Positions 4,128-63,520 of a stretch of DNA of 64,000 bases are shown in pieces; positions within the stretch are counted from its first letter, which is position 1, and each line of letters opens with the position of its first letter. Source of the DNA: Eledone cirrhosa (Eukaryota). The notes below the pieces were generated by a model. That model did no database searches, had not been told where the DNA came from, and was given only the letters and a program-made list of their open reading frames with translations. The stretch covers positions 41,354,001-41,418,000 of the forward strand of contig OZ024740.1 of the NCBI GenBank assembly GCA_964016885.1, given 5' to 3'. The translations under genes and the position numbers were made by a program.

Positions 4128-4525
4128 GTTGTGTATAATGGTAGCTATGGTGCTTCCATAGGCGGTATGCCAAAATTAGCACTCGATATTCAGCAGAGTA
4201 GAGTGTGGATAGTATAAAGAAAACGAAAAATCAGTGATGCATCTGGACTTAATTTATTGCGTGTTACAATTGTTTCGCCGGCAGGTAACTCGAGACATGG
4301 TCCTTGTATGGATCTGGCTGATTCTGCTGCTGCTGGTTCTTTCAAACACAGGTATTTCGTTCGGAGCAAATTTTATCACGTGAAATACCTGAAAGAACCT
4401 GCAGCAGTAGAATCAGCCAGATCCATACAACGACCATGTCTCGAGCTACCTGCCGGCGAAACAATTGTAACACGCAATAAATTAAGTCCTGATGCATCAC
4501 CGATTTTTCGTTTTCTTTATACTAT
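4128..4525. mobile_element. Fold-back PLE pLTR insert: tail 4128-4208, inverted arms ~4209-4358 / ~4382-4525
   Basis: Arms are reverse complements with a few mismatches. Sense arm has GAAA-CAATTG-TA-acac then AATAAA. Flanked by (TA)n. Tail hairpin at 4178-4199. Confidence 0.8.
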
Positions 4526-4542
4526 ATATATATATATATATA

Positions 4543-4795
4543 TATCACAGAAAAAAGAGAATCAGTGTTGCGACGAAAGGAATTTATTGGACATATTACA
4601 ATTGTTTCTCGGGCGACCAGCTCGAGGCACCATCGATGTGGTGATCAAACCTGACTCTGAAATCGCGCGGTCCTCGGATACGTCTCGATTCTACGAAGCA
4701 GATATTTTTCTGTGATATCATACTCTGCTCTACGAGGGCATCGAGTGCTCATACGGCCTACTGCATACGTACGATTTAAGCATCCAACACCAATT
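4543..4795. mobile_element. Second PLE pLTR insert (sense arm on minus strand; short inverted arm plus tail on plus strand)
   Basis: Minus strand GAAACAATTGTA...AATAAA ends at (TA)n. Short inverted repeat atatcacagaaaaa / tttttctgtgatat. Tail hairpin at 4722-4749. Confidence 0.7.
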
Positions 4796-4989
4796 ATATA
4801 TATATATATATATATATATATATATATATATATATATATATATAGAGAGAGAGAGAGAGAGAGAATCATCGGCTACATTGCTTATCATGTTTTTTTTATC
4901 TTAGGTTTTGTTTCAAGGTACCCTGACAAACATATGATGGTCCAGGAAGTATCTTGAAGAAATTCTCTTATAATTTGTTTTGCCTTTAT

Positions 4990-5430
4990 ATTGATATCCT
5001 CATAAGCATTTCTATTATGTTGATATATTTTTTAATAAATTTTGTTACTTTGTTGATATCTTAATACACATTGCTATTATTTTGATATCTTTATAAACAT
5101 TGCTATAATGTTGATAATGTTGCTATGTTGTTGATATCTTAATAAGCATTGTTCTTATTGTTGATGTCTTAATAAGCATTGTTCTTATTGTTGATGTCTT
5201 AATAAGCATTGTTCTTATTGTTGATGTCTTAATAAGCATTGTTCTTATTGTTGATGTCTTAATAAGCATTGCTATAATGTTGATATCTTAATAAACATTG
5301 TTGTTATCGCTGATATCTTAATAAAAATTGCTATTATTGTTGATATCTCCATAAACATGTTGCTGACGTTTTCATAAACATTGCTACTATATTGATATAT
5401 TCATAAACATTGTTGTTATGGTTGATGCTT
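4990..5430. repeat. ~30-bp minisatellite (gttgatgtcttaataagcattgttcttatt)
   Basis: Several exact 30-bp units at ~5140-5270 with degenerate units on both sides. Confidence 0.9.
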
Positions 5431-59563: not shown

Positions 59564-59601
59564 ATATATATATATATATATATATATATATATATATATA
59601 T

Positions 59602-62600
59602 ATTAATTCAAAATATGAACAAAATAGATATTCTTGTGATCAAGTATATTTTATTATACATATTTCAGAGGTACTGAGTTAACTTCAACATTACGTCCTC
59701 ATCAGATAAAATAAGATGATGCATGACATACCCTGACATAGTAGATGGTTAAGATTCAGTCATGGTAGTGAGTAATATATGACAAAACTCAATATTTATA
59801 TACCTTAATATTGAAAACATGAAAAAAACCCACATATAATACATATAATAGGGAGGGTGCGTGTGAGAAAGCTTAAAAGAATACATGGCAGCAATAAAAC
59901 TGTTAAAGATTCAAATAATTTAAATTACTGAAGAAAGAGGAAAGAAAAGAAAGGCATAGAGGAAGAAATAGATGAGGGGATAATATAGCTAGTAGGAGCC
60001 TAGAAAACAAAAGAGAGTTGATTACAGAGAGAGAGAGAGATAAAGAGGAATAACTTTTATAATGAAATAATATAGGGAGATATTAAATTAGAACAACATT
60101 TGGGCTTAGCTTTAGGAAAACGAAAAAATTCAATTCATTGAATTATTGAAATATCTAAAAATATTCATCAATCGGAATTTTAAATATAATTGGGTGTATT
60201 CATATCAAGGTTTATACCAAGTCTTTAGACAATTATCTATATATACAATATATATCCAAACATATCTATTTGACCGTTAAGATTCAAAACATTTAATTTA
60301 AGTTAGTTCAGAGTAATGAATAATATTTTAGGTTATAAAAGTTAATAAGTATCTGTATTAATATTAAAGTATACTATCATATTTAATTCATAAAATCAAA
60401 TTTTATGAAATCAAATTTAAAGGATTTACAAACACGAGAAAGAAAACATAATGTTTTTACAACCTCACGAAGGTAAACTTTACTAAATTTATTATATAAT
60501 ATTAAATTATTTATATTATATTGAAAATAGTTTATATTATATAATTTAGAAAATAATTACAGTTATAATTTTTAAAGAATATTAAGATTAACAATTAGAA
60601 TGCCTAAAGGATCAACAGGCCTTATAATTAAACTTAAAAAAAAAACTTGATCATTAAATTATATATATGCGTTTATCAAAAATATACACAAAGATAAGAT
60701 TGTCCAAAGACTTAAGATGATACCTCTCAATTAAACATAATCCAATACAATACAATAAATAAATAAGTTACTGAAAATATTGTTAAAATTAATGTTTTAG
60801 ATCAATTATTGTAATAGGATCATTTAATAGATATATACTATAAATATACAAGTCAAAACTTCATGAGTCCTAAGGATAAGGACTAGATTCAAAATAAAAA
60901 GTGAAAAAAGTAAAACTAATGAATTGTTTACGATCATAAAAGTGCCGAATATAAAAAAATATAGTTTAAAATGCAAGAGAGTTTTTATTTATATAGTAGA
61001 CTAACAACCCTTCTAAAGTGTCTACGAAGATGATATATAGAGAGAGTATTATAGGTATTAGTGAAACGATATACATATAATAAATAAATAAATAATTACA
61101 ATCATTATTAGTAATGTTATAATTGTAGTTTTACATCCAGTTCAGTGGAAAGAAAGACTAATATTTGTCGACTAGTATGATTTATGACATTTATACCTAA
61201 ATATATATAAAAAAATATATATGTACAAATCTAACTTTCTGAATCCCAAAACATACTCAAAATGAGTAAAATATATAAATACATGAATGATTTACGGTTC
61301 AATTATAACCGGTAATCTTACAAGTTATATATCCAGATTATATATTTAAAACAAAAACAAATATATAAGGATCCCAATCTAAATTATATATATCTAAAAT
61401 AATCCAAAGGTGTGCATATTCATCAAGAGAACAAGTTAACAAATAATATATTTATATACCTAAACAGGACCCTTCAGTCTAACATTAATTCTATCATAAA
61501 TGAATAGAAAATAAAATGTTTAAAGTTTTATAATCTGTTATAACATTTTAGGTACACAGTTGATAAGAGACGTCAAAAATTAAAACTTGTTTATTTAGTG
61601 CTTTTTCCTGACCTTTTGCGAGGCTTTGAATGTAGACAAAGCTTTATGAAGGCAGTTTGAGAATAATTCACTTTTTTTGTTAATTAAGTTTTCATAATTA
61701 GTAATTATTAATAGGGTCTCCATAGTACAGAGGTTGCAGTTAGGTGATATAGACGAATTCGAGTAGATTCTACTATTACATAGCTTCGTCCAAAAAAATC
61801 GAGTATTTAAAATTTTGTCTTTTAATGACCATATAAGTTGTGATAAAGAAGTCGAAGACTTCCTATTAGGATTCGGAAAAGAGCATTTGTGATTCCCAAA
61901 TCTCGATTTAAATGTCGAAGAAGTTGCCCCTATGTAGTTGTACGTGATGTTATTTGCTTTTACGGTGCATTTATACACCAGAGGGCAATCTGGTTTATTT
62001 CTACAATTACATTTCAATTTATTATTATTATAATTTATATTAACACTATTATTACTTCGAAATGTTCTATTGATAGTGCTTATATTGCTGTTAATGTTAT
62101 TCATAGTATTAATATTGTTAGTGTTATTATATTCATTATTGTTATAAGTATGCGGATTCTGGTTTAGAATTCTACTATTTAATTTAGCGATGTTTTGGGC
62201 CATATTTATAGTTGCAGAATAAGAAAGCTTAATTGTGTGTCTATTAAATATGAAACGGTATTTATGTTGAATAGGGAAGGAATTATCTAAAGCTTTAAAG
62301 AATAGATTAGCGAGTGGTGTTTTTATTGCTACAGGAACAGGGCGGGGGGGGGGGGACAAACCATATAACTGATTTAGTTCTGTTTTTTTTCCCTCCCCCG
62401 ATTTATTCACAGTATAGGTGTTTCAATTATAATTTTTAGAATTTCGTTTATACATGTCAGTCATATTATTATTTTTATCAGAATTAAGATTCAAATTATT
62501 ATTGCCTATATATTCTATATTATTTTTATAGCCTGCCTTTCTTAGCGCATCATTGCTTTTTCATCAAATATGGATTTATTAGCAGATATTCTAGTAATGC

Positions 62601-63345
62601 ATTTCTGTACACTATTGACAATTGCATTTTTCACAGATTTAGGATGATTAGAGTAATAACTAACGTAATTTAAGTTTTCATTGGGCTTATGGAAAGGGTA
62701 ATAAAAACCAGAGTTTAAGTTAAGGGTAACATCAAGGAAATTAACTATTTTAGTACCACTTTCAACCTCTAATTTAAGGTCGTAATTTTTAAAGATCTCA
62801 ATTATATTTTTCTTAACCCTATTTAGTTCTGTATTGTTGTGTTTGACAACCGTAAATAAAATATCGTCCCTCTATAAACCACCGGTAATCTCCGGCAGTT
62901 TTCTATTTACCATATTTAAGATGAAAATCCCCAGAAGATCCGTGACTTGAGCTGAGTCCGATGATCCCATGGTAATGTCAAAGTTTCTATTTCTATCCGA
63001 GCGGGTCCAATACTCATTGTTGAAATTAATTAGAGTTCTTCTAGCAGTTAATATGATATCGATTTCATCCGTAGTTAGATCTGTATGCTTGTAAGCGTAG
63101 GATAAAGCCTCATTTAATAGGTTAGGTGTAATGGAAGAGTAATAGCTTGCTATGTCCATTTGGATGAATTTGTGGTTTTTCTTATCATCTATATTTTTAA
63201 ACCAATCAATCACTTCATTGGTGTCCTTCCACAAGCTCAATTTAGACCTCAATTTCAGAATAGGTAGAATTCTATCAATAATATGGAAAACCATACTGTT
63301 GAGTGCTTCCAATCTATTGTAAAACTCATTTTTTGATTTATTCAT
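59602..63345 (-). mobile_element. 5'-truncated Naiad-like PLE with ~2-kb AT-rich 3'UTR
   Basis: RT DIASYY, FDITMGSSDSAQ, GL*RDD (TAG replaces Y of YRDD at 62872-62874), FLDVTL, SNHP; CNCR linker, YIGATSSTFKSRF, CNLC. Confidence 0.88.
59647..59713 (-). ncRNA. Type-I hammerhead ribozyme at the 3' end of the PLE
   Basis: tattttat-CTGATGA-GG...CT-GAAA-TATGTA-TA-ataaaata; 8-bp stem I. Confidence 0.75.
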
Positions 63346-63377
63346 TGAACCTTGTTTAACCTTTAAATATATATATA

Positions 63378-63520
63378 TACAATATATAAATAAATGGAAA
63401 CTATATTTATAAAACCATAATATATTGTGTATTTACTCCACTAATTTGTTGAGTGCTTTATATCAGTTATAAACATTTTTAAGCTTGTTGAATCCCCACA
63501 AATTAAATATAACCTCTGCA
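63378..63520. mobile_element. Miniature family D-related fold-back insert (~40-nt sense arm, ~8-nt inverted arm, full tail)
   Basis: aaataaatggaaactatatttataaaa matches the family D end; tail hairpin at 63435-63457. Confidence 0.7.

Follow-up and report, generated by a model that had tools for sequence, protein, structure and literature searches.

Fold-back Penelope-like element inserts in Eledone cirrhosa, with an RNA hairpin that is paired beside the end points of related elements

The window, a stretch of 64,000 nucleotides from Eledone cirrhosa (assembly GCA_964016885.1, contig OZ024740.1, positions 41,354,001 to 41,418,000 of the forward strand; GC = 38.6%), holds many inserts built of two inverted arms, one of which carries additional sequence, here called the tail. 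The inserts are 5'-truncated ends of several families of endonuclease-positive (EN+) Penelope-like elements (PLEs), an origin suggested in a preliminary description of the window and supported here by hammerhead ribozyme cores in some families, an open reading frame (ORF) with reverse transcriptase (RT) and GIY-YIG endonuclease parts, and the one-sided tail. All 17 fold-back inserts of that description are real, with extra sequence on one arm only, and two more (C3 at 26173-26356 and L at 58130-58408) bring the total to 19. We show that a tail of 34-107 nt lies on exactly one arm in 19 of 19 inserts, the other arm stopping at a family-specific point. No two-tail or zero-tail insert occurs among the self-inverted BLAST matches of the window; two decayed AT-rich hairpins (26722-26848 and 60491-60545) are not assignable to a tail class. 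Self-inverted repeats lie far above chance, with arms of 634, 617, ~490, 226, 184, 147, 139 and 133 bp at 95-100% identity. Among 31 hand-picked (TA)n-bounded segments, a set outside which J and C3 fall, an exact inverted repeat anchored at the ends reached P ≤ 0.01 in 16, against 200 shuffles of each segment. Insert L, with its decayed arms, reached only P = 0.43 in this exact-repeat test, yet its arms match each other by BLAST at E = 3 × 10−38.

Six of the 19 inserts, named here by family letter and copy number, have arms that meet at a centre of 0-1 nt. The three family-A copies, A1 (21441-21631), A2 (36486-36679) and A3 (39773-39962), share an 81-nt tail with a hairpin (minus strand, 21512-21487 in A1) and arms of ~55, 56 and ~54 bp around the same centre, which is 1 nt in A2. 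As described before, the private variants of A2 stand on both arms (four variants relative to A1 and A3). B1 (38600-38934) has a 40-nt tail and 147-bp arms with a 1-nt centre. D1 (25127-25584; tail 89 nt, hairpin on the minus strand at 25208-25186) has 184-bp arms without mismatches and a 1-nt centre at 25400, and D2 (41472-42830; tail 91 nt, minus-strand hairpin 41555-41534) has 634-bp arms with two mismatches and a 0-nt centre; the arm lengths first reported, 186 and 636 bp, are obtained when the TA common to the flanks is counted. F (37956-38599; 226-bp arms, 0-nt centre at 38206/38207, right-hand tail of 60 nt) belongs beside these, with ~106 nt missing from its left arm. Four inserts are near-symmetric with filler: M (4127-4522; tail 4127-4211 with a minus-strand hairpin at 4204-4178, arms 4212-4344 and 4390-4522, 45-nt spacer), C1 (21729-22084; 56-nt tail without hairpin, 139-bp arms with 0 mismatches, 22-nt centre containing a 19-nt copy of its own arm), E (22965-24263; arms of ~490 bp, microsatellite centre, right-hand tail 24230-24263) and the decayed L, whose 55-nt tail is also without hairpin.

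The tail-less arm is the longer one in five inserts: N (4545-4794; ~160 nt against an 11-bp tail-side arm at 4705-4715, tail 4716-4794 with a plus-strand hairpin at 4722-4749), C3 (~102 nt against ~33 nt plus tail), D3 (63379-63519; ~41 nt against ~9 nt, 91-nt tail with a plus-strand hairpin at 63435-63457), K (50626-50883; 71-nt tail with a GAGCACU-type hairpin, decayed 60-bp arms, tail-less arm longer by 67 nt) and J (52893-57647). J consists of a 107-nt tail (minus-strand hairpin 52987-52935), an inverted arm (53000-53618), a second inverted piece (53650-53889) and a sense arm (53890-57647); its tail-less arm is 3.76 kb against 0.62 kb, and the arms are 1.9% apart. The tail-side arm is longer in G (38987-39533; 98-nt tail, minus-strand hairpin 39070-39043, 92-bp arms with 0 mismatches) and H1 (49978-50512; 69-nt tail with a degenerate hairpin, 19-bp tail-less arm, tail-side arm of ~447 nt). 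H2 (58445-59562; 73-nt tail with a hairpin of 1-nt bulge) is a mosaic whose arms span nearly complementary parts of the element and are doubled only over 68 nt at the end and ~40 nt inside. Both H2 (58445-59562) and J (53583-53929) hold a second inversion, each with a 36-40 nt arm overlap. Overall, the arms of one insert diverge by 0-10%. Several are inverted-end inserts rather than palindromes (a 19-bp arm and 428-nt spacer at 49978, a 3.4-kb spacer at 52893). The tail-first order given for all does not hold for N, C3, E, F and D3, which have a right-hand tail. Nor is every flank (TA)n: the tail of F adjoins that of B1 with nothing between, A1 and J run out into (CT)n/(TC)n, and the surroundings of C3 are plain AT-rich DNA.

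Beside these, the window has at least nine other PLE-like inserts, with a single arm or as direct tandems; fold-backs make up about two thirds of the PLE-like inserts here, in a window that was picked for fold-backs. B2 (3490-3629, minus strand) is a lone tail-less family-B arm ending 8 nt before the centre of B1, and C2 (39570-39754, plus strand) is a lone tail-inclusive family-C arm that likewise ends 8 nt before its family's centre, its 5' junction bearing a 12-nt inverted copy of its neighbour G. The locally templated fillers of C1 (19 nt) and C2 (12 nt) point to junctions completed on site by end joining. Other single-armed inserts lie at 47914-48282 (minus strand; tail motif with a weak upper stem, CUGAUGA hammerhead core), 48717-48925 (minus strand; tail hairpin 48773-48753) and 52538-52850 (plus strand; hammerhead core, tail hairpin 52763-52805), the last with a family mate at 25664-25848 that shows a tail-less end. 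Family P, retrozyme-like, is a non-coding unit of ~634 nt found as a direct partial tandem at 24342-25001 (tail-less start, 25-nt second copy) and as a lone tail-inclusive copy at 63548-63908. Direct repeats of 220 nt stand between (TA)n tracts at 47040-47867, where the plus strand has a single hairpin of the GCUC/GAGC type at 47157. The centre of G (39253-39443) is ~190 nt of family F including the fold-back point of F, which lies 1 kb away; the fold-back arm of this F sequence is 40 bp against 22 bp in present F, which suggests that G may have taken it before the arm of F was shortened. An internal piece of K, 47 nt long, recurs inverted at 51302-51348, 98% identical, beside a short interspersed nuclear element (SINE) copy ~450 bp from K, and may be a templated insertion from K. 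Flank capture relating this piece to the spacer of K was considered and dropped, the spacer being K's own hammerhead region.

A single ORF with a PLE-type RT and GIY-YIG is full in J (RT thumb, Cys linker and GIY-YIG, 53891-55219) and partial in H; the other window families have none. H1 and H2 contain the end of an ORF similar to that of J, in H1 within the tail-side arm together with a hammerhead, on the minus strand. As ORF and hammerhead orientation fix the sense strand of H and J, the tail is the 3'-most part of the element and the arms stand head-to-head. The J ORF has 138 homologues (best E = 9 × 10−75), in which YRDD and GIY-YIG-region residues are conserved and C350, C352, C358, C364, H399 and C438 are invariant; one homologue, at 35% identity, is labelled Octopus. 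Its GIY-YIG domain match (E = 0.0056) is weaker than Pfam's cut-off, three homologues have no Pfam match, and no solved relative was found in the PDB. The Cys-rich linker, C-terminal GIY-YIG, CCHH motif and microsatellite targeting seen here are features of the Neptune clade in the relevant parts of PMC8557442, where a reduced linker is also given for Nematis. On these traits we provisionally call the ORF-bearing families Neptune-like, a name that stands apart from any RT-tree placement against named Neptune and Nematis references.

Hammerhead cores of the U3-A8 type occur in B (in the arms of B1) and E (+24082 and -23110), with five matches against 0-1 in 20 shuffles; cores were also recognized by eye in H and K, and CUGAnGA cores in H and others. 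M, N, J, A and F have altered or half motifs and none was seen in C, D, G or L, of which C and L are assigned to PLEs by architecture alone. Among the best 150 of 175 Rfam rows there was no hammerhead family, just chance microRNA-like matches below gathering scores. In M, N and J (4276, 4458, 4608, 53061, 57586), a hammerhead half of the form GAAAC-palindrome-GTH follows CTYGAGCT rather than CTGANGA, and in family A CTTGAGCT follows GAAAC; these halves are possibly a variant ribozyme core. Minimal PLE hammerheads as presented in the pertinent parts of Cervera and de la Pena (2014, PMC4209133) resemble the U3-A8 cores of B and E, the CUGAnGA cores and the palindromic helix III, but differ from M, N, J and A, which have only the GAAAC half or an altered core, and from D and G, where none was seen. 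Direct partial tandems of the pseudo-long terminal repeat (pLTR) are present in the window at 24342-25001 and 47040-47867 and in six metagenome loci described below (L010, L025, L028, L034, L072, L077).

Miniature inverted-repeat transposable elements (MITEs) or foldback DNA transposons would account for long inverted arms and for the many inserts without coding capacity, but we give them almost no credence, given the 34-107 extra nt on one end in 19 of 19 inserts, an insert length that is fixed only in family A, read depth that falls upstream as in 5' truncation, and hammerhead cores and an RT/GIY-YIG ORF within the arms. The view that the palindromes are not fixed MITE termini is upheld by one end always being longer and by lengths that vary in C, D and H. 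Moreover, C3, the one site with an empty paralogue (31422-31565), has no target-site duplication: the empty paralogue already contains two copies of the apparent 16-nt repeat. Elsewhere, duplications would be hidden by (TA)n.

Window families that are otherwise unrelated have a common pattern in their tails: ACUC, then a variable stem, a bulge of 2 nt, and GAGU(G/A)C. A covarying bulged hairpin of the form RCUC-stem-UH bulge-GAGYRCU is found in 13 of 19 tails from eight families, slightly decayed in H1 and K. The window has 19 matches to the loose motif, where shuffles give 5.7; requiring a stem of at least 2 and a bulge of 2 leaves 12, against 0.7 (60 shuffles). With one copy from each of 11 window families, the upper stem forms 35 pairs against 6.2 when shuffled (maximum 19 of 3000). 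In 10 of 12 scripted cases, 3-8 nt separate the end of the tail-less arm from the hairpin that follows, and the values by eye are -9 in J and -8 in K. MAFFT left the 5' strand of the hairpin unaligned, and a sequence-only motif model without base pairs matched six window tails, four training members and two family mates, which adds nothing.

A profile was built from J together with 30 of the 138 homologues, and the best 80 of its 561 matches gave 78 metagenome loci, relatives at 30-40% protein identity to the window element. These loci are redundant and related (66 regions, ~43 families), and the shuffles below overstate their independence. Downstream of the hammerhead they carry GCUC...GAGCACU, the outer pair being A-U in the window and G-C in the metagenome loci, a two-sided change. 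The hairpin follows 37 of 50 hammerheads with at least 120 nt downstream, against 45 of 2658 background windows. In 43 unique inner sequences, a bulge of 2 gives 96 pairs against 24 shuffled (maximum 46 of 2000), and bulges of 0, 1, 3 and 4 give only 2, 2, 13 and 8 pairs, so enrichment is confined to bulge 2. The first upper pair (n = 46) is C-G in 31, U-A in 14 and unpaired in one. Allowing G.U adds 15 pairs and allowing A.C adds one, which favours folding on the sense strand.

Where a hammerhead is followed by the ORF N-terminus, two hairpins are present in 19 of 21 regions (13 of 14 families), spaced 55-74 nt apart, whereas the 26 other regions of at least 200 nt have none (12), one (13) or two (1). 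Eleven regions with a single hairpin or none were aligned to two-hairpin regions, six to those of their own family and five, uninformatively, to other families. The cognate element ends 2-4 nt before a hairpin in six of six cases: L028 and L077 break 2-3 nt before hairpin 1, as tail-less ends at the 3' end of ORF-bearing copies, and L025, L034, L037 and L072 (at a contig end) break 2-4 nt before hairpin 2. L070 is two-armed, and by eye its inverted arm ends ~5 nt before hairpin 1. TAT or ATA occurs at -9 to -3 of 20 of 30 hairpins (12 of the 15 first, 8 of the 15 second), against 153 of 696 background 7-mers (22%). Hence, from the hairpin pairs and the mapped ends, the tail corresponds to hairpin 1 plus the spacer, and each end point is tied to one hairpin. 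We are confident that the conserved sense-strand hairpin pair is real.

Tail-to-tail arrangements were noticed as well. In L023 (1171-1480), two distinct Neptune-like families stand tail-to-tail in one (TA)n tract with one hairpin each, and the tails of F and B1 abut in the same way at 38599/38600. L061 (1169-1250) is an 82-bp perfect palindrome at a contig end, tail-to-tail and centred just inside hairpin 1, which may be an assembly artefact.

Two priming events, one of the routes offered in the preliminary description, gain direct support from each end point lying just 5' of its own conserved hairpin. We think it likely that the hairpin pair sets the two start sites, and we lean, with less assurance, towards each insert having arisen as a single event, with twin priming from two fixed sites of the same RNA. 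One RT-endonuclease molecule would bind each hairpin, both strands of (TA)n would be nicked, and each target 3'-OH would pair with the short UA-rich stretch before a hairpin and prime cDNA synthesis. Both cDNAs would extend toward the RNA 5' end, the hairpin-2 cDNA perhaps displacing the hairpin-1 cDNA. If both halted at a shared point, whether the RNA end or a stop, joining of the ends or a template jump from end to end would yield a perfect palindrome with a 0-1 nt centre; if one stalled, unequal arms in either direction would result, and part of the asymmetry would come from later deletion, as in F. Each end point is also used alone, tail-less in B2 and tail-inclusive in C2. Independent choice of sites would give two-tail or no-tail inserts about half the time; none was seen among 19. 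From this one-tail rule and the 0-1 nt centres we infer that both cDNAs come from one RNA molecule. Tail-side arms as short as 9, 11 and 33 nt would be compatible with stalling of a second RT on the first hybrid, and the overlaps of 36-40 nt in H2 and J fit two RTs leapfrogging, but also staggered deletions.

The main rival is snap-back with later deletion. Here a cDNA that includes the tail would double back and serve as its own template, the product would be resolved at hairpin 1, by the endonuclease or the RT, and attached to the remaining end of the target, and unequal arms would be later deletions in unstable palindromes; the hairpin could then be partly a DNA signal. A single molecule explains simply the seven of 19 centres that are 0-1 nt or nearly so (A1-3, B1, D1, D2, F), and F with its later one-arm deletion, as well as B2 and C2, which end 8 nt before their family centres as if one arm had been lost, agree with it. 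Self-priming is argued for in parts of Arkhipova et al. (2013, PMC3846280), endonuclease resolution of the tail in parts of Craig et al. (2021, PMC8557442), and self-annealing of free ends is documented for L1 breaks in a portion of bioRxiv 2024.12.14.628481. Nevertheless, the natural continuation of D1, taken from D2, offers just 1 nt of self-complementarity across a 1-nt loop. J, with arms only 1.9% apart, is 3.76 kb on the tail-less side against 0.62 kb, tail-less ends occur at the 3' end of ORF-bearing L028 and L077, and the G.U pairs favour the sense strand. A longer tail-less arm, as in 5 of 19, is beyond what snap-back of a tailed cDNA makes directly. We favour twin priming and rate snap-back as unlikely, though not negligible. 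The further idea of endonuclease-independent patching of cruciform breaks met with no evidence in either direction; the elements encode a GIY-YIG endonuclease.

The preliminary description held that palindromes are made anew at each insertion, which stands for families C, D and H, whose copies differ in centre or arm length, but is unsupported for family A and for the recurring centre of F. On comparison of its copies, family D very likely formed its palindromes locus by locus: the centres differ (arms of 184, 634 and 9/41 bp), the arms of D1 and D2 diverge by 8% between copies against 0 and 0.3% within, and within the first 110 columns all five letters that separate the copies stand on both arms. 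Reads of family D were compared with one D2 arm in four of ten runs (all but X2, X4-X7 and X10). In amplified restriction-site-associated DNA (RAD) libraries of two samples (33,208 and 36,118 reads), 4755 and 5663 reads exit the family into (TA)n at 41561, the tail-less end, and depth drops steeply upstream as in 5' truncation. Eleven of 13 listed joints switch strand, nine of the 11 in both samples, and the joint at 41749/41750, the centre of D1, has nine reads in X8. Seven of the 11 are soft in position, with an end where D2 departs from the family majority, and four are without alignment doubt. Strand-switch reads number 206 and 258, less than 1% of those compared, and the contig sets X1 and X3 have no such joint. 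With this rarity, and ~9 single-armed or tandem inserts beside the 19, fold-back as the default route is not supported. Artefacts of amplification or assembly might be invoked for joints seen in RAD libraries and missing from the X1 and X3 contigs; we regard them as scarcely credible, because arms differ by 0-10%, end points are family-specific and tied to a conserved motif, both samples share nine of 11 joints, nine reads contain the exact centre of D1, and L070 and published PLEs have the same layout.

Several observations weigh against programmed twin priming. The hairpin is missing in six of 19 inserts (B1, C1, C3, E, F, L) that keep the one-tail rule, so the motif is dispensable for the architecture, and visual inspection showed no common motif among the tails of B, C, E, F, L and P. 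A cognate copy with two hairpins was available for mapping just six ends, including one at a contig end. Hairpin 2 was seen in no window family, the window holding no intact junction of pLTR and ORF start, and its presence there would be carried over from relatives at 30-40% protein identity. The asymmetry of F looks like a later microhomology deletion, judging from the sequence, and asymmetry or a spacer marks each of the most decayed inserts (K, L, C3, M); therefore, unequal arms may be secondary. We know of no PLE for which strand displacement and template jumping have been shown, and a jump onto a free cDNA end is known for R2. In the relevant part of PMC11167929, the Poseidon start sites have no strand preference and no homology to the target. 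Finally, the identical centre of family A in three of three copies and the centre of F inside G fit fixed palindromic masters, that is, non-autonomous palindromes transcribed whole and re-inserted as units, their arms kept alike by conversion or template switching. Arm conversion would likewise put copy-specific letters on both arms, and would equally fit the D2 letter at 41610, found in ~1% of reads yet on both D2 arms. On the other side, C, D and H vary in centre or arm length between copies, the reads hold 11 different D joints, four free of alignment doubt, and the origin of the first palindrome is left unexplained. We consider such masters improbable as a general explanation, although for family A alone they are only somewhat less likely than not.

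The fold-back architecture is known, and the earlier suggestion of a new system does not stand, as the layout is already drawn in Craig et al. (2021, PMC8557442). In the parts of that paper and of Arkhipova et al. (2013, PMC3846280) that concern EN+ PLEs, the same head-to-head, 5'-truncated inverted copy, tail at one end, (TA)n targets, pLTR hammerhead and C-terminal GIY-YIG with Cys linker appear, and the latter describes palindromes at inverted junctions with self-priming proposed. Published tails there are 30-40 nt against 34-107 nt here, and those passages mention no conserved tail structure, ascribing the tail to endonuclease resolution and palindromes to self-priming. According to portions of Frangieh et al. 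(2024, PMC11167929), purified Poseidon protein (PAc, Anolis carolinensis) nicks the two target strands, extends both, and begins at two internal sites bounding the tail, on AT-rich targets, as here; it differs in belonging to another clade, in starting within one AC-rich stem-loop inside the ORF and, as far as those portions go, in having no repeated hairpin or inverted-copy model. L1 twin priming, as treated in part of Kojima (2010, PMC2912911), also has both target ends priming on the same RNA and cDNAs joined head-to-head, and N, D3 and C3 resemble such inversions with short overlap, but the second L1 site is variable and set by microhomology, whereas here both are fixed by structure and the overlap reaches hundreds of bases. 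No description of a twin hairpin or of PLE twin priming was found in literature searches or in the parts consulted of PMC4209133, bioRxiv 2026.07.22.740005, PMC12602865 and PMC8969392; Arkhipova 2006, Evgen'ev and Arkhipova 2005, and Repbase/Dfam may bear on it. The cis-element is thus apparently new.

Beyond the PLEs, 7256-21300 is an array of non-long-terminal-repeat retrotransposon copies spaced by (TATC)n, one with a gag-like ORF and an open endonuclease-RT frame of 1090 aa. Another broken Neptune-like ORF lies on the minus strand at 61595-63432, cut near its 5' part by D3 and P2, and in 40337-51927 a SINE-like repeat of 200 nt is present in about twelve copies, partly in tandem; we take it to resemble octopus SINEs.

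In its fullest form, the twin-priming proposal is that the hairpin pair places one RT each on a short upstream UA template, in a telomerase-like manner, and programs twin priming from both nicked (TA)n strands, the common cause of tail, one-sidedness and inverted pLTR, so that any transcript bearing the pair would be mobilised into a palindrome; we regard this as evenly poised between right and wrong. PLE RTs are the sister group of telomerase, and a structure-set start beside a short target-matching template may bear on telomerase origins. The origin of PLE tails and inverted copies is named an open problem in a passage of PMC8557442, and a repeated RNA element beside both end points makes it a two-mutation experiment. 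The hairpin is also a short signature with which to find and orient ORF-less Neptune-like fragments. If true, the route would add long perfect inverted repeats to host genomes, from which double-stranded RNA and fragile sites can arise.

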